Positions 41 to 44,011 of a stretch of 64,000 nucleotides of DNA are shown here, piece by piece. The DNA comes from Tubulanus polymorphus (taxonomy: Eukaryota; Animalia; Nemertea): NCBI RefSeq assembly GCF_964204645.1, contig NC_134032.1, positions 3,744,175 to 3,808,174 of the forward strand. Reading direction: 5' to 3'. The position numbers were made by a program, and so were the translations under genes. Below the pieces are notes generated by a model, which searched no databases, was not told where the DNA came from, and worked only from the letters and a program-made list of their open reading frames with translations. The first letter of the stretch is position 1; each line of letters opens with the position of its first letter.

Positions 41-1129
41 ATGATGAAAAAAGAACAATATTTAAGAGATTTATATTATAACCCAGAAAGTGAAGTTTCA
101 TATTCAAGTGTTTCGGAATTATGGGATAAAATTAAATCTGATAATAGCAATATAAAATATAGTGAATTAAAATCATGGTTACAAAATCAACCCACATATC
201 AAATTCATAAAAAGATGGATAAAAAATATTTAACAAGAAAAGTAATGGTTTCATATATTGACCAACAATGGCAAGCTGATTTAATTGATATGAAAAACTT
301 AGAAGAATATAACAAAGGATATTTTTGGATACTAAATGTTATAGATATATTCAGTAGATACGCATGGAGTATCCCGATTAAAAATAAAACTGGTATAGAA
401 GTTACAAATTCTTTCAAATTAATATTTAAAGAAGCTATTCCAGATAAGATACAATTTGATGAAGGTAAGGAATTTTATAACAAACATTTTAAAAAACTAT
501 TAACTGATAACGATGTAGAATATTTTTCAACACATTCAGATAAAAAAGCATCTGTTATAGAAAGATTTAATAAAACATTGAAAACTAGAATGTGGAAATA
601 TTTCACCGCTAATGAAACATATAAATATATCGATGTGTTAGATGATTTAGTTAAAGGTTATAATAATTCTAAACATAGTTCTATAAATATGAAACCTATA
701 CAAGCTAGAAAAGAAGAAAATTCAGAAATAGTTTGGAATAATTTATATGGAGCATTTGTTACACATGATTTTGGAGAACCTAAATTTAAAATAGGACAAC
801 ATGTTAGAATTTCTAAATATCGAAAAACATTTTATAAAGGTTATACCCCTAATTTTACTGAAGAAATATTTAAAATTAAAAAGATAATATTAACTAAACC
901 ATTTGTTTATAAATTGTTTGATTTAAAAGATGAAGAAATATTAGGTTATTTTTATGAACAAGAATTATCATTAGTACCAAATCCAGATGAAATAGAATAC
1001 AAAATAGAAAAGGTATTGAAAACAAAAACTCTTAAAGGAAAAAAGTATTCTTTGGTGAAATATAAAGGATATGATGATAAATTTAATGAATGGATTTTAT
1101 CTAGTAAAATTAAAAGAATAAATGAATAA
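41..1129 (+). CDS. Polinton retroviral-type (RVE) integrase with C-terminal chromodomain
   Basis: DDE core WQADLIDM...IQFDEGKEF...VIERFNKTLK; chromo-like tail YKIEKVLK...LVKYKGYDDKFNEWI; intact 362 aa. Confidence 0.95.
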   Translation: MMKKEQYLRDLYYNPESEVSYSSVSELWDKIKSDNSNIKYSELKSWLQNQPTYQIHKKMDKKYLTRKVMVSYIDQQWQADLIDMKNLEEYNKGYFWILNVIDIFSRYAWSIPIKNKTGIEVTNSFKLIFKEAIPDKIQFDEGKEFYNKHFKKLLTDNDVEYFSTHSDKKASVIERFNKTLKTRMWKYFTANETYKYIDVLDDLVKGYNNSKHSSINMKPIQARKEENSEIVWNNLYGAFVTHDFGEPKFKIGQHVRISKYRKTFYKGYTPNFTEEIFKIKKIILTKPFVYKLFDLKDEEILGYFYEQELSLVPNPDEIEYKIEKVLKTKTLKGKKYSLVKYKGYDDKFNEWILSSKIKRINE

Positions 1130-1739
1130 AGATTTGTTTATATTTGAACCACATAATATGTTAATAACTGGAGTTACAAATTGTGGTAAAACACACTTCA
1201 TATTATATTTATTAGAAACTATTTATAAAAATCATTTTGATAATATAATATTATTCTGCCCAACTTATGAAATGAATGAAACGTATAATAGAGATATAGT
1301 TTTTAAAGATAAAAAGTTTATTATATTAAATTCTAAAACAGTGAAAGATAATTTAGATAATTGTATAAAAATTGCATTAGATATTTATAAAGGATCTAAT
1401 ACATTATTTATTATCGATGATTGCGCAAATTTACATGATTCAAAAGTTAGAGAAAGTGAGTTATGTTATTTAGCTTTCTCTGGTAGACATTTTGGGATAA
1501 CAACATGGGTTTTAAATCAGAAATATAATTCAATTGTGAAAGATTTTAGAGAGAATATAAGATTTCTAGTTTTATTCTACAACAAAGATAGAAAATCTAT
1601 GCAACAATCATTGGAAGAAAATCAACTTATACCTACTGAATTACATGATGAATATATGAATAAATTAAAGAATAATAAAGGTTCAAAATTACTTCTGAGA
1701 CTACAATTTCCATATGAATATAAATTTATAAAATCCTAA
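1122..1739 (+). CDS. A32/FtsK-like DNA packaging ATPase
   Basis: Walker A GVTNCGKT, Walker B LFIIDD, GRH motif; overlaps the integrase stop; starts at TAAATG. Confidence 0.92.
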   Translation: MNKDLFIFEPHNMLITGVTNCGKTHFILYLLETIYKNHFDNIILFCPTYEMNETYNRDIVFKDKKFIILNSKTVKDNLDNCIKIALDIYKGSNTLFIIDDCANLHDSKVRESELCYLAFSGRHFGITTWVLNQKYNSIVKDFRENIRFLVLFYNKDRKSMQQSLEENQLIPTELHDEYMNKLKNNKGSKLLLRLQFPYEYKFIKS

Positions 1740-3218: not shown

Positions 3219-4466
3219 TTAATACATAACACTATCTAATTGTGAATTTACAATATTTAATTGCGCGTCAGATATAATATAAATGTGCATTTTAAAATTT
3301 TTGATTCCTTTATTCTTTGTCATGAATAATTGTATTCCATCTTTAGTGTTCTGTAGTTTTTTTCCAGAACCATGTAATAAGTTATCTTCAGTTGTTCTAA
3401 AATCTAACCATAATGCATATTTATTACCGGTATAATAATCAATTTGATTAATGTTACAATTTTCAAATGATTTTACTTTTTCATTCATAAAATGTTTTTT
3501 AATTTCTACCCATTGATCTATCATTCTCATTCCTTGACAAAATATTTTATTCGCTATTCCTTCGATAGTTATTTCTACTTTTGTTATTTCAGGATTATAA
3601 TAATTATCAACATTTATTGCGCCATTAGTATACGTTCCAATGGTAAAAAATATTAATATACCTTTAATAGATCTTCTAGGAAAGTTAATATTCTCATTAA
3701 TTATTTCATCATTTGCATTAATAGTTACAGTTTTAAATTTATCAATATAATCATATAATAATGAAAATCCTTGATTGTATTGAGTTTGAATTATACTTGA
3801 AATATTTTCATCAGTTACTGTATCATATTCTAAACATATATTCGATAATTTATAACTCATATCTTTATTAACGCTAGATAATACAATTTCATTTACAGGA
3901 GCAAATGTTATCTCAAATATAATATCTTCTTGAATTGCGTATTTATATAAAGGTGCATTATTATTTATCAATTCAAAGTCTAATGGAAGTTTATATTTGC
4001 TTCCATATATACTTTTTATCAATTTATCTACATCATTAGTTTATATTGCGCTATTAGCTTCTGATCTTAATTTATTTTGGTTTTCTGATTGAATTCCTTG
4101 AAATATCATATTATTTCTATTTTCTTTAGTTAACGATAAATCTTTATAATGTGAAAATAAATTATAATCATCTAATGAGAAAACTGTTTCTGGACCAATC
4201 TTTATTGTTAACTTTTTAATCAAATATCTTCCAACATTATCAACGACATAATTATTATTATTACCGATTACTTTTATATCAGCTGATAAATAAATACTAT
4301 TTGGAACGTAAAAAGTATTTTGTGTTAATCGAGGGATTCTAACGTATAAAGTTTCATCGGGATTAATATTTGAAGGGTTATGAGTAATTATATGATGTAA
4401 TCTTTCTGCTTTAATAGCATTAGATATTCTAGAAATCTTCGAAGGACTTATATAACTCCCACTCAT
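3219..4466 (-). pseudogene. Double jelly-roll major capsid protein interrupted by one in-frame stop
   Basis: ORFs 4041-4466 and 3219-4022 are in the same frame (TAA at 4041-4043, then six sense codons), about 415 aa joined. Motifs THNPS, VGRYLIKKL, PLDFE and LSNICLEYD match my recollection of invertebrate Polinton capsids; not searched. Confidence 0.8.
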
Positions 4467-10013: not shown

Positions 10014-13000
10014 TTAACACGTTAGAATCCTTTTCATAATCTCATTTTCTTTTGTTTCTTCTCTTTTGAATTTTATATATTCATCTAAATTGCAACCATA
10101 GGCGACTGTGTGGATTCCATCATCTAAAATATATCTTTTATCATCAAATGGGTTTAGACTTATCTTCTCTATCTCTTCAATATACATTTCATGATCTTCA
10201 GATCTTAAACATTTCATTTTATGTTTTCTAACTTCTTCATTAAATATACAATTGATATAATCTTTGAAATGAATATTCTTTTCAACAACGCTTCTGGTAA
10301 TTCCTTTTAACTTTTTAGCTTCATGAGTTTTAGTTTTATAACTATACATTTTAGATCTAATACCAATGAACTCTATCATTTCTTCACCACCTAATTCATC
10401 CTTAAACTTCCCAGGAACTTTTTTATTATTATTGGTAAACAATTCATGATTTTTAGGATAATTACTGAAATCAAAATGATGTTTTAATGTTTTTAAATCA
10501 TCTGTTATGTTATCAGTTTTTATCTTTAATATGTAAGAATCTGTATCAAAATATAAGATTTCTATATGTTTTTCTCCAAAATGAGGTTGTAATACGTTAT
10601 AGTAAAATTGATACATCAATAGCTTTGAAATTTCTAAAACTGCAGCTCCAACATAAATCGGTTTATTAAATTTCATTGAAGTTCTTCTCATCTTAACTGC
10701 TGCTAAATTTTCATCAAATATTCTGTTACCTATAAACTTATGATATGATTGTAAATGCCTTATCCTTTTACCATTACTAACTAACTCAATATCATTTCTA
10801 TTTCTAATATTTTCACAAGTCTTACCATAGAACGCATTGTTCATTAACTTAAAAAAATCTTTTTCAAAATCAGTTTTAGCTTTAGTTCTCTGTGTAGTAT
10901 TAAAATCTATATATTTTTCTAACCATTTAGATTGACTGAATGAAATATATCTATGTACTTTTTTTAATATCATTCCTTGATTCAAATAGAATTTTAACAT
11001 TATATAATGTACTACATAATTATATTTATCTTCTTGAGTTACCATTAATTTTTCAGTATGAATATGATTATCGGGTTTAATTCTTTTTTGATAATTTGAT
11101 AATTCTTCATGTTTAACAGTTTTATGTTCGGGACAATAAGCTAGATTTCTAGATTTGAATTTAATATTTTCAGGGTATTCTAAATCTACAACGAAGAAGT
11201 AACCAATATCTGAATCATCTGCAATATCTAGGATTCTTTTCTTCCAATCAAATTTATCAATTTGTAAAACTTCAGTTATTTCAAACATCCCATAAGGTTG
11301 TGGTTCCATCATTGCCCAACCATAAAGATTATTTGCATCTATGTATAATAATTTATATCCAGGATTATCATTTACATTGAAATATCTATCACCCAATACA
11401 CCTGAAACACCTCCTCTTATAGATTTTTCAAATAATAGTAATTGATCTATATTTGTTAACAAATCCATTTTTATATCTGTAAATTTTAATCCACAATCCC
11501 ATGTTAATCCTGGTGATGAATAACAATGACAAGGATCAATATTGAAATATTTTAGGTTTACATCTCTAAACCTTTCGAATATATCGGTTAATAATAATAC
11601 ATCTGATTTTAAATATAAATCTACTAATTGCCCATGATTTTCTATTTTGAAATGATTCCAAATATTCAATGTTCTATCATAGACTTCATCTTTAACATAT
11701 TCATTTTTTAATTCATCATAAAATTGTTCTTTCAATAATTCAGTTATTTTAAAATCATTATGATTTTTATAGAAAGAATATGGAATCGCTCCTTTATATC
11801 TCATTAATTGAAAATCATCATTATTTGGGTAATATTCTTTTAATATTTGTAATTCATCATCAACTAATGATTTTGATAAGTTATCTAATGAACTATTTAA
11901 AAATCTATATGAATCTATAAATCTTAGACAACCAAATTGGAATGATATATAATTCTCAGATGTTTTAGCTAACATTCTAAATCTATAAGTTGGTATTTTA
12001 TCTTTTGATCTATTTGAATTTAATATTTCTATTTCATTATTGATTTCTTCTATTTTATGACATAACTGTTTGATATATAAATGTGCATCATATCCTGATA
12101 GGTTATGAAATATAACTGGTATAAAGTTAATTTTCTTAGCTTGTAAGTTACAATTCTCATGTGCCGCGCCTCTAAACTTTCCATTCAAATGATCATGATC
12201 TCTTACCTTTTTATCTTTATAATTAAATATCTTTTCACAATAATAACATTTATCTGCAAACGCAAATACTTCTTTATCTTCTTCTGTCATTATAATTTCT
12301 ATATTTGTATTCAATAATTTACTAAATCTTATTTCATATTCAATTAATAAGTCACAAAAATGATTGATAACATTTTCATTTCTATAATTATAATATTCAC
12401 TTTCGATTAGTTCTGGATAATCAGATTTAATATATAACCCGAAAGCTGCAGCTGATTGATGAATCTTTTTAATTGTATTTGTTATTGGTGGTTCATCTGA
12501 AAAATCATTTTCATTAGAATTTAATTTCTTTCTTTTATAATATATATCTTTTCTATCTTTATCTGTTAATTCTTTATTTAATGATTCAAAATCTCCATAT
12601 ATTACAAATGGTACTTTATTTTTGTAATCATATTTATTGAATTCTAATATTTTATCTTTTTCATTTGGTAAAACTAATTTACAATAATCATGATTATCAC
12701 ATAGTTGTTTATGATTTAATAATGTACTTTCATTACTAAATTTATGTAAACATTTTCTACATAGATATATTTTATTATGGTGATCACTTTCTGTTCTAAA
12801 AAATAAATCTATTTGTTTAATCCACATATAATGATTCTCATAATATAGTATATCTATAACATCATTTGAATCATAATCTTTTGATAGATATAAAGGTTCT
12901 AATGTATAATGTTTTATATTGTTACCTTTTGTATTTGGTAATTTGATTAAATCAAATACATTTATCTTTATATTATTATCTCTTTCTATTTTTGGAATAT

Positions 13001-14040
13001 TTTTAATTCTAACAGGATACTTATCTATCTTATAATTACTTTCAAATGGTTTATAATGAGTTAATCTACAAATATTATAAGTTGCAGGATGTAAACAACT
13101 TATTATAGTCCATAGAAAACATTTATCATCTTCATTTTGTATGTTTATAACAGCATTAGTTTTTAAATGGTAGTTTGATATAACTCGATGCTTCAATATC
13201 TGGTTCTTTATAATATGATAAATTATTTTCATCTATTGGTTTTGATTTAGTTAACTTATTATATTTTGTGTTATAAACATGTAAAGTTATAAATATTGTC
13301 TCATCAAATATTAAACCAGATCCTTCAAAATATTTCTCTTCTATTTTAGTTTTTACTTCATTATAACATTTATCTAATTTATCATCTATATGTTGTTTAG
13401 ATATAATATGTTGTGAATGAGAATTTATATTATATATTGGTTTATCTTCAGATTTTATAAACTTTACTTTAACTGATATACTAATTTTTGGATATTCTAC
13501 GTTTGTAATTATTTTTATTATTTCTTTCATATTTTCTAAATGTTTTTTATTTTCTTCTAATGTTTTTCCTTTATGAAATTTAAACTCGATAGCTGCTGGA
13601 CCAATATCACTTTTAAATGCTTCGGTTATCTCTATATCTTTTTTATTATCTAATGAATTAATATAATTTCTTACATCTTCCATATATGGTCTTTTATTGT
13701 TTAATTTATTTTTTATTCTTTTAATTGTCTTCTGTTTCTTATCGTTATCATTATCAAAATAATCTTCACCTAAAATATCATTATTCTTATTTCTAATATG
13801 ACTTATAGATTTTAAATGTTCTTTATAATATCTTTTATCACTGAATGATTGATTACATGTATCACATTTGTATGTTTCTTTTTCATTCTTTAATTCTTCT
13901 AATTTAGATTCTAATATATCATCTTTATATTCTAGTTTCAATTTATTCTCTAAATGTGTTCTAGTTTTATTGTGTCTTGCTTTTTGGGATTTATCTATAT
14001 CGATATTACATGTTGGGCAGTAGTACTTATTTGCTTCCAT
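10014..14040 (-). pseudogene. Protein-primed family B DNA polymerase (ZnF, terminal-protein-like, vOTU-like, Exo with EndoVII insert, Pol), split by a 1-bp frameshift near 13160
   Basis: ExoI YGDFES, ExoII HNLSGYD, Pol motifs DANNLYG, KLMNNAFYGK and YFDTDS. Removing one A from TTTAAAAACTAAT fuses SSYIKLPFK to TNAVINIQNEDDKCF, giving about 1341 aa. Confidence 0.92.
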
Positions 14041-14122: not shown

Positions 14123-14389
14123 AGTAATAGGGGTAATAGGCTTTCGGGTTAAAGGTTGAACGGGCGGGTGAGTAAAAATGAAAAACATAAAAATAATTAC
14201 AATTTCTACTTGAATTAGGAGTGAAACTCATAAAAATGAAAAATAAATTCGAGCGTGTGAGAATTTATTTTTCATTTTTATGAGTTTCGCGAGTAATTCA
14301 AGTAGAAATTGTTATTATTTTTATGTTTTGCATTTTTTACGAGCTCGACCGTTCGACCTTTGATTCGAAAGCCTATTACCCCTATTACT
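14123..14389. repeat. Terminal imperfect palindrome (267-bp hairpin) of element A
   Basis: AGTAATAGGGGTAATAGGCTTTCG...CGAAAGCCTATTACCCCTATTACT; loop GAGCGTGTGA at 14251-14260. Confidence 0.95.
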
Positions 14390-14891
14390 GATCTCTCCTA
14401 ACCCCGATGCCAGGTTGGATTACAGTTCCATCTCCCCTAAGGGTCTCTGAAGGGGATTGTATGGCAGGAGGTGAAATTCTTTGCAGACGTGCTCCCAATT
14501 CCCAAGTTAGTTTTACCAACTTGGATATTTCCAATCTCAGCCCGGGTGCGAAAGACAATTCCGGTTAAACGATTCAGAACTCCTAAGTCTTCGCCAGTTC
14601 CACCCAACAAATGTAATAAAGGAATTTCTTCTTTCCAATCCGAAAAACTTTGTTAAACTCGATCGAGGTCGCATAATCACTTTGGCAATATCCTATCTTT
14701 GAAACAAGTGAATCACAAGACACTGCATAAATTGATGAAAAAATTATTCGTAGCAATACATTCCATTTTTTTCTGAAATCAGTTGGATTTATCTAAAGCG
14801 AAGAAATGATGTTTGGCGATGTTGTTCGATTTGACGGCACAAGTCACGCCACATTTGCATATTCGAAGCAGACAACGGAACCAATAGCGAA

Positions 14892-15842
14892 ATGGTTTTC
14901 GTCAATGTCACCTTCTTGCAACCAATCGGACGCCCTTACCAATCCTACTTCGCTCTGAAATCGATTGTACACATGTCTGGTCCGAATAGAACAGTGGCGC
15001 TGATCACTTTCCCGATCATGTTCATTCTAGGTACGTTCGGCAACACGGCCAGTTTCCTGGTGATGAGTAGCCGAAGATTCAGGCGATTTTCGTACGCGAA
15101 CTACTTGATGGTTTTGTCCATTGCAGATTTATTACTGACCATCAGTATGTCCGGTATGCCGTTGTGGGAGTACGCGTTGAGAAGAGTGGATTTCTCCAGT
15201 CTCGGACAGTGTTTAGCTTACGAATTCGTATTCAAATTTGCGTTTTCCTGGAGCACGACTCTTATAGTTTTTATTACGGTGGAAAGAGTACTAGTTGTCG
15301 TTTTTCCGTTCACGTCGCGTGTCATATGCACGGTAAAATGTTCTCGCCGCATCATGTTAGTAATGGTTGTTCCAAATTTCCTAGTCGCCAGTCACACGTT
15401 TTTCGGTATGCGTTTTTCCGACAAGCTGAAATGTCACTATTACAGTTTCCGCTTCCATAAACAGATGTACTTTTACCTGAACGTATTTTTATACGTCGGC
15501 CCAAGTGTGCTGCTGATCGTTTGTAATTTGGTAATCATTATTTTCATGCGACGCGGATTAAAAGTCGGGGAGACCGGGCGAAAAACGGCTAAAGCCCGTC
15601 GTACAACCATAATGCTGATAACGGTATCTTCGACCTTCGTGGTTACCACATTGCCAAACACGATCACGTCTTTTCTTCCGATTCCCGAACATACCGTCGA
15701 TTATTTCTATACAATTTTCACGATGGTTACGACGTTGAATTACTCGTTAAATTTCTATATCTATCTATTACTGGGGTCTGAAGTCCGCGTGTTCGTAACG
15801 GAGAAGATTACCTGCAGAACCGACGCGAAAATTGCTCGGTAA
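14892..15842 (+). CDS. Intronless class A GPCR (peptide-receptor/chemoreceptor-like)
   Basis: Seven hydrophobic segments; GTFGN, LSIADL, TVERV, TLPN, NYSLNFYIY; host-like base composition. Confidence 0.9.
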   Translation: MVFVNVTFLQPIGRPYQSYFALKSIVHMSGPNRTVALITFPIMFILGTFGNTASFLVMSSRRFRRFSYANYLMVLSIADLLLTISMSGMPLWEYALRRVDFSSLGQCLAYEFVFKFAFSWSTTLIVFITVERVLVVVFPFTSRVICTVKCSRRIMLVMVVPNFLVASHTFFGMRFSDKLKCHYYSFRFHKQMYFYLNVFLYVGPSVLLIVCNLVIIIFMRRGLKVGETGRKTAKARRTTIMLITVSSTFVVTTLPNTITSFLPIPEHTVDYFYTIFTMVTTLNYSLNFYIYLLLGSEVRVFVTEKITCRTDAKIAR

Positions 15843-15989: not shown

Positions 15990-17015
15990 TCTGAAATATT
16001 GAACGATCGTATGGCACATCCGGGAAGAAATAAGACCTTAGCGTAAATTCGCAGTCGATTCTTCTGGCCTGGTATGTCCGCGGATGTTGATTTCTATGTG
16101 AAATCGTGTACACGTTGTGTGGTGCATAAAAGCTCTACGCCGGGGCAACAGAATCCGCTAGTGTCCATCATAACTTCGCATCCCCCCCCCCCCCCCGGGG
16201 TACTTTGTTCAGATTTTATTTTCACATTAGATCAAAGTAAAGGAGGATTTGAACATGTATTGGTCATGACTGACCACATTACTAAATACGCACTAGCAGT
16301 CCCCACTCGAAATCGGCCCACTCGCACTACAGCTCGGGTTATGTTCGAAACTTTTATTTCAAAGCTTGGAGTCCCTATACGAATCCATCGTGATCAGGCA
16401 GCTAATTTCGAAAGTAATTTGGAAGAGAACTGTGCGACATATTTGGTATTTAGAAGTGGCGTACAACCCCATAACATCCGATATGGGAAATGGGGCTTGC
16501 GAACGGTTTAATTCTACTCTGATCTAGCGGTTAGGCCTATTAGAACCAGTGAAAAATAAACCTGGAAAGACCATATATCGTCAGTTGTATTTCAATACAA
16601 CTGCACACCCCACGATACTATAGGATTTTCACCTTACCACCTCATGTTCGGTCGAGAACCTAGTTTGCCAGTTGATGAGGAATACCAACTACATCAACCA
16701 CAAAAGCAATTTACTGCTACCCTCCAAGAGGAGTTTAACCTCCTATGGGCTCAAGCTAGGGAGAAATTACAAAAATCTGCTAAAACATTCGCGCGGAATT
16801 ACAATTAAACGGTTCGAGGTGTTCGATATCAGAAGGGGACATGGTATTAGTGAGATGTGTTGGGGTAAAGGGTAGAAACAAATTAGGAGATCGCTGGAGG
16901 GAGAACCCTCATCTTGTTGCGTCACAACCAAGCACGAGTATTCCCTATATGTAGTCGAAGATACGGTTACAGGCAAACGGAGAACACTCCATAGAAATCA
17001 GCTTTTGAGTTTGTC
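15990..17015 (+). pseudogene. Ty3/Gypsy LTR-retrotransposon integrase remnant
   Basis: HPGRNKT...RFFWPGM...VKSCTRC (H2C2), LVMTDHITKY, IHRDQAANFES, YNCTPHDTIGFSPY; stops and frameshifts. Confidence 0.88.
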
Positions 17016-17019
17016 TCGT

Positions 17020-17320
17020 TAGGGGCCGTCCATAAAAGACATCCACGCTGTAGGGGGAGGGGGTTAAGATTTGTTTGACTTGTGGAAAAGGGAAGGGGGT
17101 TCCTCTGATATGGATGTCCATCTTGAAAGGGGGGTCACTAGTTTAGTAAAATCACTTAATCCACCAATGACTAGTTACCAGAACTTCAGAAGTTATAGTC
17201 ATAATACCAGGTTAAGGTAAATGTAAATACGTTAATAAAAGTTCAGTTTTTTATGCCGCATCAAACCTTTATCAAGTGTGAAACTTAAGGTCCACTGTCC
17301 ACGAGAAAGGGGGTCAAGCT
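17020..17320. mobile_element. Truncated MITE-like element
   Basis: Starts TTAGGGGCCGTCCATAAAAGAC with G-rich subterminal sequence; the other end is missing at the junction with element B. Confidence 0.4.
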
Positions 17321-17639
17321 GATTGGTCGCTCCACTTCGCTACCGCTCCGCTCCGCGACCAATTGATTTATTTACAATACACAAATTCATATAATCAAAT
17401 ATATTCAAATAATAATAATTATTCTATTATTCAACTGAAATACACACGGTTATGAAAATATATTATAGTTTTAAATTACTTTTAATGTTTTGTTTTTAAT
17501 GAGCTCGACCATTCAACCTTTAACCCGAAAGCCCATTACCCCTATTACTCTTAAAATATTCATATAAATGAATAACATTTAAATTGACAGATTATTCAAT
17601 ATAAAAGTGTAAGCTCTTATAGGATATATATATAAATAG

Positions 17640-18250
17640 TTATTTTATAAATTTATATTCATATGGAAATTGTAGTCTCAGTAATAATTTTGAACCTTTA
17701 TTATTCTTTAATTTATTCATATATTCATCATATAATTCAGTAGGTATAATTTGATTTTCTTCCAATGATTGTTGCATAGATTTTCTATCTTTATTGTAGA
17801 ATAAAACTAGAAATCTTATATTCTCCCTAAAGTCTTTAACAATTGAATTATGTTTTTGATTTAAAACCCATGTTGTTATCCCAAAATGTCTTCCAGAGAA
17901 AGCTAAATAACATAACTCACTTTCTCTAACTTTTGAATCATGTTAATTTGCGCAATCATCTACAATGAATAATGTATTTGATCCTTTATAAGTATCAATT
18001 GCTATTTTTATACAATTATCTAAATTTTCTTTTACTGTTTTAGGGTCTAATATAATAAACTTTTTTATCTTAACTATATATCTATTATATGTTTTATTCA
18101 TTTCACAAGTAGGGCAGAAAATATTATATTATCAAAATGATTCTTATAAATAGTTTCTAACAAGTCTAATATGAAATGTGTTTTACCACAGTTTGTTACA
18201 CCAGTAACTAACATATTATGCGGTTCAAATATAAATAAATCTTTATTCAT
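17640..18250 (-). pseudogene. Packaging ATPase pseudogene
   Basis: Reverse-complement homolog of 1122-1739 with a frameshift near 18120 and a TAA near 17944. Confidence 0.9.
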
Positions 18251-19332
18251 TTATTCTTTTAATTTTACTAGATAAAATCCATTCATTAAATTTATCATCG
18301 TATCCTTTATATTTCACCAAAGAATACTTTTTTCCTTTAAGAGTTTTTGTTTTCAATACTTTTCTATTTTGTATTCTATTTCCTCTGGATTTGGTACAAG
18401 TGATAATTCTTGTTCATAGAAATAACCTAATATTTCTTCACCTTTTAGATCTTCTAATTTATAAACAAATGGTTTAGTTAATATTATCTTTTTAATCTTG
18501 AATATTTCTTCAGTAAAATTTGGAGTATAACCTTTATAAAATGTTTTTCTATATTTAGATATTCTTACGTGTTGTCTTATTTTAAATCTAGGTTCTCGGA
18601 AATCATGTGTAACAAACGCTCCATATAAATTATTCCAAAATATTTCCGAATTATCTTCTTTTTTAGCTTGTATAGGTTTCATATTTATAGAACTATGTTT
18701 AGAATTATTATAACTTTTCACTAAATCATCTAACACATCGATATATTTATATGTTTCATTAGCAGTAAAATATTTCCACATTCTAGTTTTCAATGTTTTA
18801 TTAAATCTTTCTATAATAGATGCTTTTTTATCTGAATGTGTTGAAAAATAATCTACATCGTTATCAGATAATAGTTTTTTGAAATGTTTGTTATAAAATT
18901 CCTTACCTTCATCAAATTGTATCTTATCTGGAATAGCTTCTTTAAATATTGATTTAAAAGCATTTGTTACTTCTATACCAGTTTTATTTTTGATTGGAAT
19001 TGACCATGCGTATCGACTGAATATGTCTATAACATTCAGTATCCAGAAATATCCTTTGTTGTATTCTTCTAAGTTCTTCATGTCAATTAAATCTGCTTGC
19101 CAATGTTGATCGATATATGAAACCATAACTTTTCTTGTTAAATAAGTTTTATCCATTTTCTTGTGTATTTGATATGTTGGTTGATTTTGTAACCATGGTT
19201 TTATTCACTATATTTTATATAACCATTTTTCTTATCAGATTTAATTTTATTCCATAATTCTGAAATACTAGAATGTGATACTTCACTTTCTGGGTTATAA
19301 TATAAATCTCTTAAATATTGTTCTTTTTTCAT
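18243..19332 (-). pseudogene. Polinton integrase pseudogene
   Basis: Near-identical protein to 41-1129 (ORF 18353-19156) with frameshifts near 19205 and 18357. Confidence 0.92.
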
Positions 19333-19338
19333 CTGATT

Positions 19339-19711
19339 TTAATCCATTAATAATAATTTAGATTTAGTTTCAATGGTTTTAGGATTTGACTTATTTTCTG
19401 GTATGATAGGTTTATTATCATTGGAATCATTATTGTTATAATCAGATATATACTTATATTTATATATTACACCAGAGAATATAATAACTGTTACTAATCC
19501 AATTGTAATATATAAGTAATTATTACTTCCAGCATTAGAAGAATTAGATGGATTATTATTTGATTCAATATCAGATAAAGTCTGTGATTCATTTATATCA
19601 GTTAATTTTTTTTTTCTTAGCTTTTTTTAATTCTGAAGATCTTTTACCTAATTCTCTTGCCCATTTAATTTGTTTCTCTGATCTAGCCTTTTTCTTAACG
19701 CCATCACTCAT
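19339..19711 (-). pseudogene. Small basic protein with a TM helix, frameshifted in an A-run
   Basis: MSDGVKKKARSEKQIKWARELGKRS...YITIGLVTVIIFSG...KLLLMD*; its 3' end matches window positions 1-37 of element A. Confidence 0.65.
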
Positions 19712-20302
19712 TTATTTTAGTTAATTTTTGTTCTGATTCATTTTCTATTTCACTGTTTGGTTGTAGAACAGCGTCATCTGTTTCGTCCTTACCTGATTTA
19801 TATTCCATAGGCTTGATGTTCGAAACAGTTATGACACCAGTAGAAATTAATGTCATAACCGATCCTAATTGAAATGAAGCATAACCAACCCATTTTTGTA
19901 ATTCAGTCATAACTAAGTAGTCATTTTTCAAATCACTATATAATTTATTTTCATCATCAATTGGTATTAACTGGTTACATAACATTTGACAATACCATCT
20001 GAAATAGAATCATTTATTCGGGATAATCTTGCCTCTTCATAAATCTTAAAATATTTCATTACTTTATCTGGTTTCATAACATCTAATTCTTGAAAAGTAA
20101 TAGTCTTAGTTAAAAACTCTTTAGTTTTTCCACCGGCAATCAATAGTTCTAGATGATGCTTACAATATAAATAGTATTCATAATCTATATTACAATTAAC
20201 TTGAGCACAATTAGTTACAACTGTATCTTTATTATCACTTATACCCAAATCATCTAATGTCTTTTCAATATCAATACTATTCGTATTAGATTTCTTTGAC
20301 AT
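19704..20302 (-). pseudogene. Polinton hypothetical protein split by a frameshift
   Basis: Overlapping ORFs 19967-20302 and 19704-19985 join near 19985; TAAATG start. Confidence 0.65.
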
Positions 20303-20648
20303 TTATATTAGAGAAATTTATTAAGAAAAATATCATAAGTATTCTTCAAATGATACCAGTATCTCTTTAGATTAATACTAGCTTAGTTAAAGGTAAAGAA
20401 TTTTAGTATTAGTTATTGTTTTTTTAGTATTTTTTATTTGTGATATAAAGTATTCTTTTTTGAAAAGAAAATATTAAAAATATAATAGAATTCACTAGCT
20501 AGTTGAAGTTATTGTTTTTTAATATTTTTTATTTAAAATCTATTATTCTTTAACCACTCATTAAAGACTCAACGTATTGTTCATTATTTGGATCATTGTT
20601 CCAAATTGCAAATTTCTTTGCCTTTGTTAACTGTTCTAAATATAACTG

Positions 20649-21212
20649 TTAATCTAGTTTATTAGATTTAATTATGTTTTCCTTCTTTTCTAAAGGTCTT
20701 AAATTCTTCCAATTCCAAACAAGTTTTTTATTGTATTCATCATTCATGTTAAATTTAGAAATCGGCAACACGTGATCAATATGGCAATAATCCCCATAAT
20801 TATCTATATTCATTTTATCATCGAATTGAAATATAATCCATGATTTGAGAAATTCATCTGTATAACACAATAAATTAGATAGTGTTTCTGAATGTGTTTC
20901 TTTGTTGAATAATTGTGTTAATCTAGATCTTAAGCATTGTTTCGATCTAAAATTAAGATCTGTTTGATATCTTTCTCTCATGTATTCTGCCATATAATAA
21001 TTATAATGTTCTATATTATCTTCTCGGTATTGTTTGGTATATAGTTTAAAACGAGTTTTACAACAATATTGAAAACCATCTTTGCTAATCTTACGCTTAC
21101 TAAATTCTGTTAATGATTTATCTAATTCACATTTAGAACACTTCTTGTAATATATATTTATAACACCAGTGTTATTTGTAATATTTATAGTTTGTGGTTG
21201 TTCTGGTTCCAT
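20649..21212 (-). CDS. HNH endonuclease with N-terminal Cys cluster, of the type common in large DNA viruses
   Basis: KKCSKC...CCK, then HIDHVLP...WKNLRPLEKKENIIKSNK. The frame continues past the stop to about 20551, so the stop may be premature. Confidence 0.8.
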   Translation of the reverse strand: MEPEQPQTINITNNTGVINIYYKKCSKCELDKSLTEFSKRKISKDGFQYCCKTRFKLYTKQYREDNIEHYNYYMAEYMRERYQTDLNFRSKQCLRSRLTQLFNKETHSETLSNLLCYTDEFLKSWIIFQFDDKMNIDNYGDYCHIDHVLPISKFNMNDEYNKKLVWNWKNLRPLEKKENIIKSNKLD

Positions 21213-21329
21213 TTATTATACGTATTTTTTACTAAATTGGTTAATATTTTAGAATCCTCTTCCATTTCTTCGACCAACGTCATCCTTTTTCATTCCTCGC
21301 TGCTTTTGATAAGTTTTTTCGATTCCCTG

Positions 21330-21890
21330 ATATCTAAATAATACCACTGGGCGAAACTGCTCTTATAGGAGCGTTTTTGCTTAATGCGCATGCGTTAATC
21401 ATAATTATATATTCATTCTATAAATTCTGTAAAATAGAAACAACATATGCGTTACATGCGTCACATGCGGCCATTGATGTCCGGTTTTGCTTAATGCACA
21501 TGTGTTAATCATAATAGAAACAACCGACATGAAATATCTAAATAATACCACTGGGCAAACCGCTCTTATAGGAGCGTTTTTACTTAATGCGCATGCGTTA
21601 ATCATAATTATATATTCATTCTGTAAATTCTGTAAAATAGAAACGACCGACATAAAATATCAAAACGTGTTCGCATTAGGCAAAACCGCTCTTATAGGAG
21701 CGTTTTTGCTTAATGCGCATGCGCTAATCCAAATTATATATTCATTCTGTAAAATAGAAACAACTGAACATAGAAAATTCAAACGCATGTGCACTAGGCA
21801 AAACCGCTCTTATAGGAGCGTTTTTGATCAATGCGCATGCGCTAATCCTAATTATATATTCATTCTGAATAGAAACGACCGAACATAAAA
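21330..21890. repeat. Tandem array of about 120-200 bp units
   Basis: Four copies of GCTCTTATAGGAGCGTTTTT...AATGCGCATGCG plus one partial copy. Confidence 0.9.
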
Positions 21891-22429
21891 ATTCACCAAT
21901 CAGATTTACACAATACATTATACAAGTTGTTCGGCCGTTTCTTCCAATACATCATTTGATTTCTATAAATACAATTTATAATTACAAACATTTTTTCAAT
22001 TGCTGGTAAATATTTAACTACATCAACAAATGTTAAACTTAATCATTGGAGTCTTAATGTTTTTGAAATTCTTATATAGTTTCTTCGTCGATCTTTTGGC
22101 GATTCTTGTGTTTCTTGTGCTAATTTCTATTGGTTCGATATCCATTGCTGTTGATTCCTCAGTCAGAAAGAGTATCTTGAGTTTCTCTATCACTTCTTGA
22201 TGCGTATGGCGTTTTATTAATCTAAAAGATATTAGCGGTAACTCTAGCTATCTAAAAGATATACTAAATACACTTAAATATATCTAAAGGTTTCATATTT
22301 ATTAGCCCTAATAACTTACAAAAACAGTACTTACATTTAGATTTTAGAATTGTAAACTATAAACTCCTAATTTCGTTTCGAGAGATAGAATATCCTGAGC
22401 ACAATGTTACAGCGTCTGTTCATTTCCGG

Positions 22430-22570
22430 GGCGATTTCTAGAATGAACACGCCGTTGATTATTACACGTCATCTGGTTCCGGCACACCTTTCTAGAATAT
22501 TCTACATGTTTCTGATTATGACATGTCATCTCTATTCAGAGTTCCAGCACACCTCTCTAGAATTTTCTCT
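22430..22570. promoter_or_regulatory. Cluster of heat-shock-element-like motifs
   Basis: TTCTAGAATATTC (22490-22502, perfect TTCnnGAAnnTTC), TTCTAGAA near 22436, CTCTAGAATTTTC near 22555. Confidence 0.5.
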
Positions 22571-22860
22571 ACACGTTTGCAATAATGATTCATATGTCTC
22601 GGCGTCATAGTAACAGCTGTAACAGCTGTGAATTTATAGATTTATTCAATCGTTCATTACATGAAATGTATATAGGTTCAAATAGAATCATGTTCTAGTA
22701 TAAACAGCTATGAATTATTTCAATCACACTTTACTAACACTTTTAATGTTTAAAATCTAACTCACACAAATATGAATATTGAAATAATGTTGTAATTATA
22801 TACTTTTATATCGAATAATCTGTCAATTTAAATGTTATTCATTTACATGAATATTTTAAG

Positions 22861-23263
22861 AGTAATATGGGTAATGGGCTTTCAGGTTAAAGGTTGAATG
22901 GTCGAGTTCATTAAAAACAAATATTAAAAGTAATTTAAAACTATAATATATTTTCATAACCGTGTGTATTTCAGTTGAATAATAGAATAATTATTATTAT
23001 TTGAATATATTTGATTATATGAATTTGTGTATTGTAAATAAATCAATTGGTCGCGGAGCGGAGCGGTAGCGAAGTGGAGCGACCAATTGATTTAATACAA
23101 TATGCTTTTTAAATTATTGATATCTTAGAATAAATATTTAGTTATAATATAAAATGCGCACGGTTATGAAAATATATTATAGTTTTAAATTACTTTTAAT
23201 GTTTTGTTTTTAATGAGCTCGACCGTTCGACCTTTGGCCTGAAAGCCTATTATCCCTATTACT
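22861..23263. repeat. Terminal imperfect palindrome (403-bp hairpin) of element B
   Basis: AGTAATATGGG...CCCTATTACT; apex stem AAATCAATTGGTCGC/GCGACCAATTGATTT at about 23040-23093. Confidence 0.93.
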
Positions 23264-36630: not shown

Positions 36631-36684
36631 TTATATTAATTTTATTGGTGTAATCATTGTTTTTAATAAGTAGTATACTATAGC

Positions 36685-36774
36685 AGTAATAGGGAAAGTG
36701 TTGTTTCATACCAAAGGTCGGGTCGAGCACACTCTCCCCAACCTTTGATATGAAACAACACTTTCCCTATTACT
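36685..36774. repeat. 90-bp terminal hairpin of element C (mirror copy at 40989-41078)
   Basis: AGTAATAGGGAAAGTGTTGTTTCATACCAAAGGT...ACCTTTGATATGAAACAACACTTTCCCTATTACT. Confidence 0.95.
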
Positions 36775-37049
36775 TTTCAGTTCTTTCATATTTAAATCAG
36801 TGAATATTTTTATTTAAATGTGTTAAATTCTTGATTTTAACATGAAAAGTAACGACTACTTAAGGAGTTGAAGAAAATATCATCCAAATGTCATATGGAC
36901 GAGTGAGTAAAGTGTGAGTGAAATAATTCATATTTAAATCAGTGAATATTTATATTTATATGTGTTAAATTCTTATTTTCAATATAAAAGTAACGAGTAA
37001 TTAACGAGTTGAGGAAAATATCAATTTTAATAAAAAATTTGATATTAAA

Positions 37050-37283
37050 ATGGAAGCAAATAAGAAGTACTACTGTTCAACATGTAAAATCAATATAGAT
37101 AAATCTAAAAAATCAAGACATAATAAAACTAAATCTCATTTAGAAAATAAATTGAAATTAGAATATAAAGATGATATATTAGAAACTAAATTAGAAGAAT
37201 TAAAGAATGAAAAAGAGATATATAAATGTGATACATGTAATCAATCATTCAGTGAAAATGAGATACCATTAAGAACATTTTAA
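37050..37283 (+). pseudogene. Truncated copy of the PolB N-terminal zinc fingers
   Basis: MEANKKYYCSTC...YKCDTCNQSFS is near-identical to the start of ORF 13156-14040. Confidence 0.85.
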
Positions 37284-37396
37284 GTCCAAAAGTCATATTA
37301 GAAATATGAATAATGAGTTAAATAATATAAAAAGTAACGAGTAATTAAATTAAAGAGTTGAAGAAAATACCAATTTAATAAAATAATGACTAATAA

Positions 37397-37974
37397 ATGA
37401 CTGAACAGATGCTACAATTCAAAGATATCGATTTAAATGAATTAGAAAAATATTTTACAGTTAAAAATTTCATTCCTATTAAAGATTTGATTAAAAGTGC
37501 GCGCCTTCGTTTTCAAGTGAAAAATATTACCGAATTAAAGTTTAAAAATCATTATCTAATAATAGAGTTATCGAATGATAAAAAGATAAAATCTTATACA
37601 ATACAATAATTCCAAAATTGACAACATTTGAAGAAATCGATCAACATTTAATAATTACAGATGAAATGCAATCACTTTTTAATAATGAAAATTCACATAA
37701 AACATGATTTCTACACTTACGTTATTGCCCTTTCAGAGAATGCTATGTAATGTTTTCCAGAGTAGAAGAAAAGAGATTCATCCCCGACATTCAAAATGAA
37801 AAATCATTCAAAGATGTTGGAATTCAATGTAACTTAGACAATAAAATCGAAACACCTAAATATGAACCTAATGAAAAAGCGTTATGTAATTGCGGAAAAT
37901 ATTATACTCGAAGCAATAAATCACACCATCTTAAAACAAAATATCATAACTCAAAAATAATAATTCAACTCTAA
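37397..37974 (+). pseudogene. Broken ORF ending in a CxCG...H...H zinc finger
   Basis: ORFs 37397-37609 and 37750-37974; C-terminal CNCGKYYTRSNKSHHLKTKYH; decayed mirror copy at about 40105-40580. Confidence 0.55.
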
Positions 37975-38018
37975 ATATTCAAAATAATATATTTCAAATT
38001 ACTTTTTTTCTTAAATAA

Positions 38019-38240
38019 ATGGATGGTTTCAGCATTCCAATTGGAAAAAGTGATTTGAAACATTATCTTATAGCAGGAAGGTTAATATTGGCTTCATTAT
38101 ACTTTTACTGTGACATTATTTCAAAAGATCTAATGAATGAAAACATTAAATTGAGTAAAAAGTTAAAGAAGTTAAATGGAAACAATCACAGGAAAAAAAA
38201 CAATAAAAAAGTTAATGATTTAAATGATTTAGAGGATTAA
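38019..38240 (+). CDS. Small orphan protein with a hydrophobic segment (mirror copy 39845-40060, minus strand)
   Basis: TAAATG start; open in both diverged arms, with an in-frame 6-bp indel between them. Confidence 0.65.
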   Translation: MDGFSIPIGKSDLKHYLIAGRLILASLYFYCDIISKDLMNENIKLSKKLKKLNGNNHRKKNNKKVNDLNDLED

Positions 38241-38287
38241 GACAGAATCTTTTAATTTAATTTATTTTATATATTTTAACTATAAAA

Positions 38288-38557
38288 ATGAGTGAAAATA
38301 TATTAAATTTATTACATCTTATTTACAGAAATCAAGAGCGCATTAAGTTAATCATTGTGATTTCAGGTTTATTATCATTCTCAATTTATAGTATAAAGCA
38401 GTTGTTAGAATTCTATGATTCTTGTAAAATTAGATACGCGGAATTAAAAGATAATATCAATTATCTATCAGATAGAATTGATAATAATAAGTCTTGTGAA
38501 ATTTGTAATACAAAATATAAAAATAAAAAGTGTTTAAAAACTCAGGTATATTCATGA
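38288..38557 (+). CDS. Small TM plus coiled-coil orphan protein (mirror copy 39555-39797, minus strand)
   Basis: LIIVISGLLSFSIYSI segment and CEIC motif; mostly open in both arms. Confidence 0.6.
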   Translation: MSENILNLLHLIYRNQERIKLIIVISGLLSFSIYSIKQLLEFYDSCKIRYAELKDNINYLSDRIDNNKSCEICNTKYKNKKCLKTQVYS

Positions 38558-38606
38558 ATTAGATGATAAATTCAAATAAATTTTGATAATTAAAAAGATT
38601 AATTTC

Positions 38607-39353
38607 CTATACATATTGATGGATGAATTGAATGAATTGGATGAATGGATGAATGGATGGATGTAATAATATATATATTTTACTTTTAAACACACGAATT
38701 GGAAGAATAATACGAGTATAAATATAATATTTGTATTCTATATTAAATTTAATATAGTATATTAATATCTTATTAAAATAATATTTAGATATAGTATAAA
38801 TAACTTGGATGAATGGATGAGTATTCCAATTCATCCAATTCATCCACTCATCCATTCATACACAATTCCAAATTCTATAATATTACAAATTATGATTTTA
38901 TTTTTGAAATTTATATTAATATATGATATTGGTAGTATCTCTACGCAGCACTAGAATAATATGAGTGATACTAAGTTAGTTAGTTTATCGTTTTTCTAAT
39001 TGAATTCTAGTCAAATGTAAAGAAATTTGATATTGATAAAAATTATTAAAAAAACATCAGAAAAACAATACATTGAATAAGTTAGTGTTGCTTATTCAAT
39101 TGTATTGGTTTTCTAATGTTTTTTTATTAATTCTTATCAATTGAAATATTATAGAATTTGGAATTGTGTATGAATGGATGAGTGGATGAATTGGAAGACT
39201 CATCCATTGATCCATTCATCCATTCATCCAAGTTATTTATACAATATTTAAATATTATTTTACTAAAATATGAATATATTATGTTAAATTTAATATAGAA
39301 TACAAATATTATATTTGTACTCGTATTATTCTTCCAATTAGTGTGTTTAAAAG

Positions 39354-39423
<70 letters not shown>

Positions 39424-39465
39424 ACACTCATCCATTCATCCAATTCATCCATCAATATGTATAGG
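38607..39465. repeat. Two inverted copies of the GGATGA iteron module flanking the foldback centre; includes (AT)32 at 39356-39419
   Basis: Homologous to 1748-2114, including spacer sequence TATTCTTCCAATT. Confidence 0.88.
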
Positions 39466-41227
39466 AAATTAATCTTTTTAATTATCAAACTTAATTTGAA
39501 TTATGTAATTTATCATCTAATTCATGAATATATCTATGAGTTTTTGAACTCTTTTTATTTTTTTATATTTTTTTTACTACACATTTCACAAGACTTAATA
39601 TTATTAATTCTATCTGATAGATAATTGATATTATCTTTTAATTCCGCGTATCTAATTTTACAAGAATCATAGTATTCTAACAACTGCTTTATACTATAAA
39701 TTGAGAAAGAAAATAAACCTGAAATCACAATGATTAACTTAATGCGCTCTTGATTTCTGTAAATAAGATGTAATAAATTTAATATATTTTCAATCATTTT
39801 TATAGTTAAAATATATAAAATAAATTAAATTAAAATATTCTGTCTTAATACTCCAAATCATTTAAATCATTAACATTTTTATTGTTATTTTTCCTGTGAT
39901 TGTTTCCATTTATCTTCTTTAACTTTTTACTCAATTTAATGTTTTCATATATTAGATCTTTTGAAATATTTTCACAGTAAAAGTATAACGCAGCCAATAT
40001 TAACCCTCCTGCTCTAAGATAATGTTTCAAATTACCAATTGGAATGCTGAAACCATCCATTTATTTAAGAAAAAAAGTAATTTGAAATATATTATTTTAA
40101 ATATTTAGAGTTGAATTATTATTTTTGAGTTATGATATTTTGATTTAAGATGGTGTGATTTACTGCTTCCAGTATAATAATATTTTCCGCAATTACATAA
40201 CGCTTTTTCATTAGGTTCATATTTAGGTGTTTCGATTTTATTGTCTTAGTTACATTGAATTCCAACATCTTTGAATAATTTTTCATTTGGAATGTCAGGG
40301 ATGAATCTCTTTTCTTCTACTCTGAAAAACATTACATAGCATTCTCTGAAAGGGCAAAAGTGATTGCATTTTATCCGTAATTATTAGATGTTGATCTATT
40401 TCTTCAAATGTTGTGAATTTTGGAATTATTATATTGAATAAGATTTTATCTTTATCATTTGATAACTCTATTATTAGAGTTATTATTGATTTTTAAACAT
40501 TATGTCCGTAAAATTTTTCACTTGAAAACGAAGGCGAACAGTTTTAATCAAATCTTTAATAGGAATGAAATTTGTAATTGTAATTGATTTTACATGTTGA
40601 ACAGTAGTACTTCTTATTTGCTACCATTTTGATATCAAATTTTTATTAAAATTGATATTCTCTTCAACTCGTTAATTACTCGTTACTTTCATATTGAAAA
40701 TAAAAATTTAACACATATAAATATAAATATTCACTGATTTAAATATGAATTATTTCACTCACACTTTACTCACTCGACCCTATGACCTTTGGCTGATATT
40801 TTCTTCAACTCGTTAATTACTCCTTACTTTTATGCTAAAATCAAGAATTTAACACATATAAATATAAATATTCGTTGATTTAAATATGAATTATTCACTC
40901 GTTAATTACTCGTTACTGTTTGTCAAAATCAAGAATTTAACACATTTAAATATAAATAGTCACTGATTTAAATATGAAAGTACTGAAAGGTAATATGGAA
41001 AGTGTTGTTTCATATCAAAGGTCGGGGAGAGTGGGCTCGACCCGACCTTTGGTATGAAACAACACTTTCCCTATTACTTATAGCGACGTCACCAGACATA
41101 TTTAGGCAATTTGAGTGATAATGTACACGGTATTTGAGGGTCTGCGACGAATGATTTTTAAAGTTAAATAGCTGTAGTGCAGGTTCTAACAATGAGCCTA
41201 ACATAGTCTTCACATCGCAATCAGTTG

Positions 41228-43130: not shown

Positions 43131-44011
43131 TGTAAAAAAAGAGATTGTATATTACGCAGGGGATTGGTTACAGCCAGACATTATTTGCCAGATCATTCAT
43201 TCAATCTAAATGTCCGAAGCTACGATCATGTTAACGACCGATGGCAATTCATTCATTATAAAACGGAAACCTATGCAATGTAAGTCAATGGTTATAGCAT
43301 CTTATAGAGCCAATATTCATGTGATGGCATGGTTACAAAAAGGCAGGACCTCGACGAGTGAGGGTTCGGGGTAGCGGATGAACCCCCTGAAATTTTTCAA
43401 AATTAACATTTATTTTTCATGTTTTTTTTTTCTTTGGAAAATGATAAGCCTTAGCTTTGTTTCTCATCTTCTTCCAACGGACCGAATTTCAGCTATTTCG
43501 ACCGTACCAACTATAAGTGGATGATAGATGTGAGTATATTTCGCAAGATTTCTGATATTTTATTCATGCCAGGTAGTAAAGTAACTTTATTTCTCTAACG
43601 GAATATAGCTATCATGAATAAGACTGTATTCGTATCAAATTAATTAAACAAATATGCGAGAGTGCGCGCAAACAGTATGATACCATCAATCCTATATGGC
43701 GAATAGTTTGACAGTATCTCGACTAATGAATGGTGAATAGCTATCACCAGTAAGACTTGTAAATTAGACATTTTGTAACCACACGGATCTCTTTCTCGTG
43801 AAATTAATTTATCGATTCATCAGAGAATGCAGCCATTCCATGCAGTGGAGACGATCATCCATTAATATTACATGGAAATATGAGGTGTTAAGATTTGGAT
43901 GCTAATGTGATTTGCTAGAATTTGAAGGCAAACAAGAAATTACAATAGGATATAACATTTAGAAGTTTCTAATAGATTTGTTACTCCTAACGTGCTACTT
44001 GTTGATCCGAG

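Follow-up and report, generated by a model that had tools for sequence, protein, structure and literature searches.

Strand-polarised terminal palindromes in pPolB-encoding Polintons of an animal genome

Known terminal structures and the elements of the window

Polintons or Mavericks (adintoviruses) are described, in the accessible parts of the literature, as elements with an RVE integrase, an A32 ATPase and a multidomain pPolB that comprises a terminal-protein domain, vOTU-type motifs and an inserted HNH-type nuclease; they carry TIRs, a 6-bp TSD and AG...CT termini (PMC11161782, PMC10748475, PMC8502044). These features are shared by the elements reported here. Unlike in the described elements, the tips of the TIRs are palindromes of 90-400 nt with strand-polarised mismatches. 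The word stem 'palindrom' does not occur in the accessible text of PMC10748475 and PMC8502044, the latter likewise has no 'hairpin', and in the accessible text of PMC11161782 'hairpin' is found only once, inside a reference title. In these sources Polinton replication is described only as a model, and the step from the protein-capped genome to integration is called unclear in the available part of PMC11161782.

According to the available portion of a 2026 preprint (bioRxiv 10.64898/2026.07.28.741278), endogenous virophages/PLVs of Halocafeteria seosinensis have palindromes inside their TIRs, adjoining the TSD, and a hairpin-priming model was put forward for such protist virophages/PLVs, preferentially non-pPolB ones. 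These palindromes measure about 52 nt in the figured subtype, and strand polarity is absent from the palindrome section of the preprint. The elements of the present study differ in being animal, in encoding pPolB and in having a conserved terminal-protein domain. Hairpin priming at terminal palindromes has already been proposed for protist elements. No report of a strand-polarised terminal hairpin in an animal pPolB Polinton was found; Kapitonov and Jurka 2006 or the Repbase entries may already mention palindromic ends.

The 3' overhangs of Streptomyces telomeres (Tpg/Tap) contain sheared G·A pairs and GNA loops and are primed by a terminal protein. Pairing of their terminal 13 nt to a palindrome further inside is possible, extension of the DNA end is described as an extra product with Mn2+, and fold-back fill-in is known there as a limited way of mending truncated tips (PMC4513846, PMC5449611, accessible parts). 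A similar folding of the 3' strand with sheared G·A pairs or GNA loops is predicted here from sequence. However, the single long stem is replaced in Streptomyces telomeres by several short palindromes, they depend on an internal origin with end patching, and neither a family B polymerase nor an integrase is involved. The window element encodes pPolB with a PRD1-like terminal-protein domain instead of a Tpg/Tap system, and the likeness is an analogy, not membership.

Rolling-hairpin termini of parvoviruses (AAV; left end of MVM/LuIII) and poxvirus telomeres share the imperfect palindrome and the paired 3' end with our elements. Single-orientation ends exist in parvoviruses, and the asymmetry of the arms at such left ends is a further shared trait (PMC1185569, accessible part). 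The window elements differ in their conserved terminal-protein domain, in showing no flip/flop in the reads and in that no HUH nickase was found among the scanned ORFs. Flip and flop in similar amounts, typical for AAV and poxviruses, were not observed among the integrated ends.

Within the AT-rich animal DNA of the window, by which we mean the whole analysed stretch of 64,000 nucleotides, three Polinton copies (A, B and C) were recognised. Element A ends at 14389 and begins upstream of base 1, so that its other end lies beyond the window. It encodes an RVE integrase with chromodomain (41-1129, plus strand; PF00665, E 7.8e-9), an A32-type packaging ATPase (1122-1739, plus strand; PF04665, E 3.8e-12) and pPolB with an Endonuclease_7 insertion (PF03175, E 2.7e-16). 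Together with TIRs (in B and C), a TSD in the range of 5-8 bp (on C) and AG...CT termini, these are traits of Polintons/Mavericks. A Capsid_N match at 4044-4466 (E 9e-4) is weaker than the curated cut-off, and an Adenain-like maturation protease had no Pfam match in the scanned ORFs, which cover short ORFs in part. A further palindrome of 400 nt lies inside element A (1730-2132) between convergent genes and shows little strand preference (-96.9 vs -100.9 kcal/mol).

Element B (17322-23263) is a deletion derivative of roughly 6 kb, in which the terminus abuts the ATPase/integrase block almost directly and no polymerase was seen. Its left end (17322-17549, minus strand) comprises only inner arm and apex. 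The outer arm is lost, and the hairpin is broken about 25 nt beyond its centre, beside an LTR-retrotransposon fragment (16047-17321); the break point may mark the apex as fragile. Element C (36685-41078) measures 4.4 kb and consists of the polymerase end in inverted duplication, flanked by the 6-bp TSD TATAGC (36679-36684, plus strand; second copy 41079-41084). The long inverted duplication forming its body (36775-40988) served as a mismatch control. The turnaround of C is located near a homologue of the internal palindrome of A; C looks like a copy-back defective genome, yet the TSD is retained. In the host DNA separating the elements we noted two intronless rhodopsin-family GPCR ORFs (14835-15842 and 44006-44962).

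Folding and mismatch polarity of the terminal palindromes

A preliminary description of this DNA, made from the letters alone, had reported palindromes at each intact end, and the present analysis confirms them with pairing up to the tip. They comprise 267 nt in A (14123-14389) and 403 nt at the right end of B (22861-23263), in both cases with the plus strand as the 3'-terminal one, and 90 nt at either end of C (left, 36685-36774, minus strand 3'-terminal; right, 40989-41078, plus strand, slightly decayed). All intact ends start at a terminal AGTAAT motif and are paired through the last base, except at isolated decayed sites of B right and C right; B is intact at the right only, since its other end is without outer arm. 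The termini are real: C has its 6-bp TSD and 1615 reads of run X5 break off behind 14389 into heterogeneous flanks (agreement 0.34).

As the preliminary description had suggested, folding energies were computed for each strand as single-stranded DNA. At all four window ends the 3'-terminal strand folds better than the opposite one: -106.3 vs -94.5 kcal/mol in A, -116.3 vs -104.5 in B, -40.3 vs -36.4 at C left and, with a gap of just 0.6, -38.7 vs -38.1 at C right. For A, the 3'-terminal strand reaches z=-24, and none of 200 shuffles was equally good.

The same polarity is found in the mismatches, read on the 3'-terminal strand. The seven G-T transitions counted before in A, with G-A as most of the remaining mismatches, were recovered exactly (7 G·T, 0 A·C, 6 G·A, 1 T·T, 1 G·G), and B agrees with A, its basal stem having ten G·T against no A·C, besides one T·C. 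C left has 2 G·T and 2 G·A. Summed over the stems of A, B right and C left, this gives G·T 19, A·C 0, G·A 8 and T·C 1, with apex loops and B positions above 109 excluded (the middle of B is unalignable); when apex loops and the middle of B are added, A·C is still absent from every window end. The strand flip between the two ends of C, formerly taken as a fulfilled prediction, does exist but adds no independent evidence, as both ends are inverted copies of one sequence, and they were not treated as independent in the counts.

When homologous positions are counted once (merged by hand), 14 distinct G·T sites and no A·C site remain (binomial p=6e-5); these sites share ancestry, so the p-values given for them overstate independence. 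Control inverted repeats show G·T and A·C at 27:28 in total, that is 19:19 in the long arms of C, 6:6 in a host inverted repeat and 2:3 between the two TIR copies of B. The comparison of 14:0 distinct sites with 19:19 in the C arms yields p=7e-4 (Fisher). The excess of G·A is weak when taken alone (binomial p=0.02; 0.056 against the control).

Tandem G·A pairs are present in A (stem and apex) and in C. The apex of B (23053-23075, plus strand) contains three cGNAg triloop mini-hairpin motifs, two GCGGAGC and one GCGAAGT; a single further one occurs in the relative L035. All of them are on the 3'-terminal strand, the opposite strand having none. GNA triloops are described as exceptionally stable in DNA in the accessible part of PMC3201870, and GCGGAGC is named as a GNA-type loop in that of PMC5449611. 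By prediction, the mismatches promote the fold on that strand which has its 3' end at the respective terminus. The earlier idea of a hairpin selected to fold as single-stranded DNA is supported by a bias that the controls do not show, by the G·A pairs and by triloops on one strand only: the 3'-terminal strand appears to be selected for such folding.

The two arms are not equivalent. Mismatches are concentrated at arm positions 25-49 (14147-14171 in the inner arm of A, plus strand), where 22 of 94 positions are mismatched, compared with 16 of 274 elsewhere (p=7e-6). In this zone two GGTCG copies are found in outer arms (GGGCG in L035), and in inner arms at least one GGTCG copy is broken, mostly into GGTTG. 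We infer that constraint acts on the sequence of the outer arm, but in the inner arm only on its one-strand pairing.

Genomic copies, relatives and the polymerase

Reads of runs X1-X3 and X5 stood in for a genome-wide census of ends. In X5, coverage is about 2860-fold at the end and about 20-fold on the flank, from which about 100 copies of the terminal palindrome are estimated, a rough order of magnitude, as the flank reads differ from the window. Among the copies, paired positions covary, A>G at 14138 going with T>C at 14374 and G>A at 14146 with C>T at 14366.

Flip/flop isomers, which had been named as something to look for, left no sign in the reads, and integrated ends occur in a single orientation. 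Flop ends were expected as inner-arm reads with loose host flanks before 14123. No such loose-end row is among the best six of X5 (the smallest with 343 reads; 377 further rows exist), as compared with the 1615 reads behind 14389, which bounds flop at roughly under a fifth, provided that the ranking of rows follows support. With hairpin transfer as in AAV or poxviruses, the palindrome is turned over in every round and a polarity would be erased, so ends of one orientation argue against it. However, an integrase could filter flop ends from the integrated copies, and the single orientation may then misrepresent the free pool. Considering this together with the single-orientation ends of parvoviruses, the orientation weakens hairpin priming rather than excluding it.

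The best-supported 15 of 78 X5 joints include one strand change, at 14231-14241, off the hairpin base, and no head-to-head junction across the base. At the end of C, none of four joints changes strand, with only about 50 reads crossing the apex. The joint at 14231-14241, where 78 X5 reads connect opposite strands, is missing from the contig runs and represents either an apex-rearranged subfamily or a library fold-back artefact. Read joints within 14132-14335 point to several shorter hairpin subfamilies that have base and apex in common and differ in stem length.

The relative L035 (78% amino acid identity) has a terminal palindrome of 257 nt with a C-GAA-G apex and pairing up to the last base. 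Its basal stem shows G·T 3 : A·C 0 and T·C 3 : G·A 1, and both strands fold equally (-69.5 vs -69.4). Because of the T·C to G·A ratio and the equal energies, polarity is weak in L035; the count over the whole arm (G·T 9, A·C 5) takes in the unalignable apex region. In L032 the inner arm is present and cut by the contig end. L036 (63% amino acid identity) has kept the outer motif, while its contig is without inner arm, an absence that may be real or due to assembly loss.

An AGTA-started terminal palindrome was detected in one of 127 scanned PolB loci, namely L035; most of these loci are distant and without identifiable ends, and the present finding concerns this clade. In viral contigs the exact terminal-palindrome pattern had no match, and relatives of the queries P0003 (viral contigs) and P0002 (metagenomes) were not found. 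Five loci from a scan with a degenerate end motif (L128-L132) have no long palindrome and were rejected as chance matches.

Among distant relatives, hairpins of 180 nt were observed upstream of pPolB in L107 (7526-7708) and L013 (4657-4840), with the bases ACTACTATA...TATAGTAGT, so that the motifs are arranged the other way round than at the termini in the window. The one in L107 may be a terminus; the palindrome of L013 was rejected as such, being internal and between genes. Polinton-type pPolB contigs were also encountered within bacterial and archaeal metagenome bins (L112-L127), likely as mis-binned eukaryotic elements.

The polymerase gene of element A is split by a frameshift into two frames on the minus strand. 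The N-terminal part (13156-14040) comprises zinc fingers and the terminal-protein (D1) domain, with the predicted linking Ser at 13318-13320; the remainder (10014-13232) comprises vOTU-type Cys/His motifs, the Endonuclease_7 insertion (aa 316-364) and DNA_pol_B_2. In relatives at 78-80% identity, both parts form one ORF of 1319-1365 aa. An AlphaFold model of the N-terminal ORF reached pLDDT 81 with an alignment of 72 rows, and a single-sequence model with pLDDT 45 was set aside. The model is ordered as strands 149-156 and 161-168, helix 178-191, strands 198-209 and 215-219, helix 228-251, Ser254-Gly255 and strand 257-269. It thus has the TP/D1 fold with a Ser between helix 2 and the last strand, a trait of PRD1-like terminal proteins.

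The best PDB matches are C-terminal little-finger regions of Y-family polymerases: Pol eta (Z 8.3, rmsd 2.8, 104 aligned), a second match (Z 8.1, rmsd 2.8, 95 aligned) and the PolIV little finger (Z 7.8), values around Z 8 being rated as modest by the tool. For Polinton terminal proteins, the same topology, the same position of the linking residue and a link to the Y-family fold are described in the accessible part of PMC11161782. The predicted linking Ser is conserved in 70 of 72 aligned proteins. In the following domain, called vOTU-type by motif and position, Cys and His are each conserved in 39 of 40. BFVD matches include PolB proteins labelled as adintovirus, MELD-virus and densovirus. 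Judged by model and alignment, the polymerase is predicted to keep the terminal-protein fold, the linking Ser and the vOTU-type Cys/His residues. Endonuclease_7 is common in distant relatives too, and nuclease insertions are known in Polinton pPolBs (PMC10748475, accessible part), so the domain is not regarded as a hairpin-specific resolvase.

Proposed replication at the folded ends

We consider protein-primed replication, in which the hairpin is a folded single-stranded 3' origin or cap, to be the best reading, with a probability of about one half. Strand displacement or excision would release a single strand, whose 3' end would fold immediately. The outer arm may be kept by its sequence, with the doubled GGTCG as a likely protein-binding site, whereas the inner arm would be kept only by pairing and drift through wobble-compatible changes, by which the motif is lost; this loss would prevent a false end in the duplex. 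Terminal protein and polymerase would start at the 3' tip and open the hairpin through strand displacement. Copying that starts at the tip would always leave the same sequence on the 3' strand and hence give no flip/flop. Limited fold-back fill-in may mend nibbled ends and keep the arms matched.

The preliminary description had gone further and proposed hairpin-primed replication. Its part on the folding of the 3' strand can be retained; hairpin priming as a replacement of protein priming is not supported in that form, given the conserved predicted linking Ser of the terminal protein, the conserved vOTU-type Cys and His and the reads without sign of flip/flop. Streptomyces 3' overhangs fold and a terminal protein primes nevertheless, so a folded, paired 3' end alone need not imply self-priming. 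Points against protein priming at the folded end are that a terminal sliding-back repeat was not demonstrated at the ends and that the terminal-protein domain could be kept for some steps only.

A further point against the best reading is that a flush, fully paired 3'-OH with a long template beside it makes a textbook primer, of the kind that phi29-type polymerases extend. It is possible, at a clearly lower probability, that both modes are combined: the terminal protein makes the 5' ends, and the 3' hairpin also self-primes the second strand on displaced or excised single strands. A cut immediately behind the terminal TACT, made in 3'-processing by the integrase or by the Endonuclease VII domain, would reopen the closed end. 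Protein-primed patching would come next, or else integration with host fill-in, and the orientation would be preserved. This mode is consistent with the pairing to the last base in the intact ends and in L035, with the better fold on the sole strand that yields a primer, and with family-specific middle stems that are still palindromic, which suggests that arms are copied from one another. The conserved arm asymmetry recalls the single-orientation left ends of parvoviruses (PMC1185569, accessible part), fold-back extension was obtained with Streptomyces telomeres in vitro with Mn2+ (PMC4513846, PMC5449611, accessible parts), and the same model was proposed for protist virophages/PLVs (bioRxiv 10.64898/2026.07.28.741278, available portion). 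It is weakened by the lack of head-to-head junctions across the hairpin base among the best-supported 15 of 78 joints, by the occurrence of Endonuclease_7 in distant relatives, by the outer-arm motif without inner arm in the contig of L036 and by the preference of the palindromes for non-pPolB elements in the available portion of the preprint. We retain it because the primer is so good and no block to a processive polymerase is evident.

Unlikely is that the fold serves excision or integration, with the folded transferred strand offering the integrase a duplex-like end on single-stranded DNA. RVE integrases join the 3'-terminal strand, an RVE integrase and the 6-bp TSD are present, and integron attC and the IS200/605 systems are precedents of strand-specific folded DNA substrates. 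However, RVE integrases work on duplex ends, and excision of one strand would require cuts at both ends, of which the 5' end folds worse.

We regard three further explanations as very improbable. Pure hairpin priming of the parvovirus or poxvirus type, without a role of the terminal protein, would account for imperfect terminal palindromes carrying a paired 3'-OH. Against it stand the conserved terminal-protein fold, Ser and vOTU residues, the reads without flip/flop sign and the absence of the HUH/Rep family among the scanned window ORFs, the far end of A lying beyond the window.

Equally improbable is a mutational bias, by CpG decay or strand-specific deamination, acting on palindromes that arose from accidental snap-back. 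Four of the 14 distinct G·T sites are of CpG type, coding copies of A and B lean toward the same bias (42:26, p=0.07), the two strands of L035 fold equally, and accidental annealing is named as an alternative in the available portion of the preprint (bioRxiv 10.64898/2026.07.28.741278). However, when G-T and A-C were counted outside CpG, as proposed in the preliminary description, the bias outlasted the removal (10:0 distinct sites, p=0.001). CpG decay is also unlikely because host DNA is without CpG depletion (o/e 1.04-1.05), and the control repeats are balanced at 27:28. Deamination can yield neither the G·A excess nor GNA loops on one strand, it does not fit the covarying pairs 14138/14374 and 14146/14366 among copies, and by reasoning it should strike the displaced or non-template 5'-terminal strand, opposite to the data. 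Wobble positions 27/28 and the GGTCG motifs are, furthermore, recurrent across families.

An RNA hairpin in an outward transcript as the selected structure is just as improbable: G·U and tandem G·A stabilise RNA as well and RNA energies have the same polarity (A, -166.6 vs -138.7), but stem and DNA terminus coincide exactly, transcription of the nearest gene is off the opposite strand, and the cGNAg triloops of the apex are described as exceptionally stable in DNA (PMC3201870, PMC5449611, accessible parts).

The strand-polarised terminal hairpins provide sequence-level evidence of a single-stranded stage with a selected 3' shape in this Polinton clade. The 90-nt end of C is a defined DNA substrate for distinguishing between protein priming, self-priming and processing by the integrase. 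If the combined mode were true, parvovirus-like self-priming would have been added to protein priming in a Polinton clade, and these elements would stand, with a hybrid replication mode, as living intermediates between DNA viruses that use terminal proteins and those with hairpin telomeres. Any contribution of self-priming would link protein-primed viruses to hairpin-ended ones.
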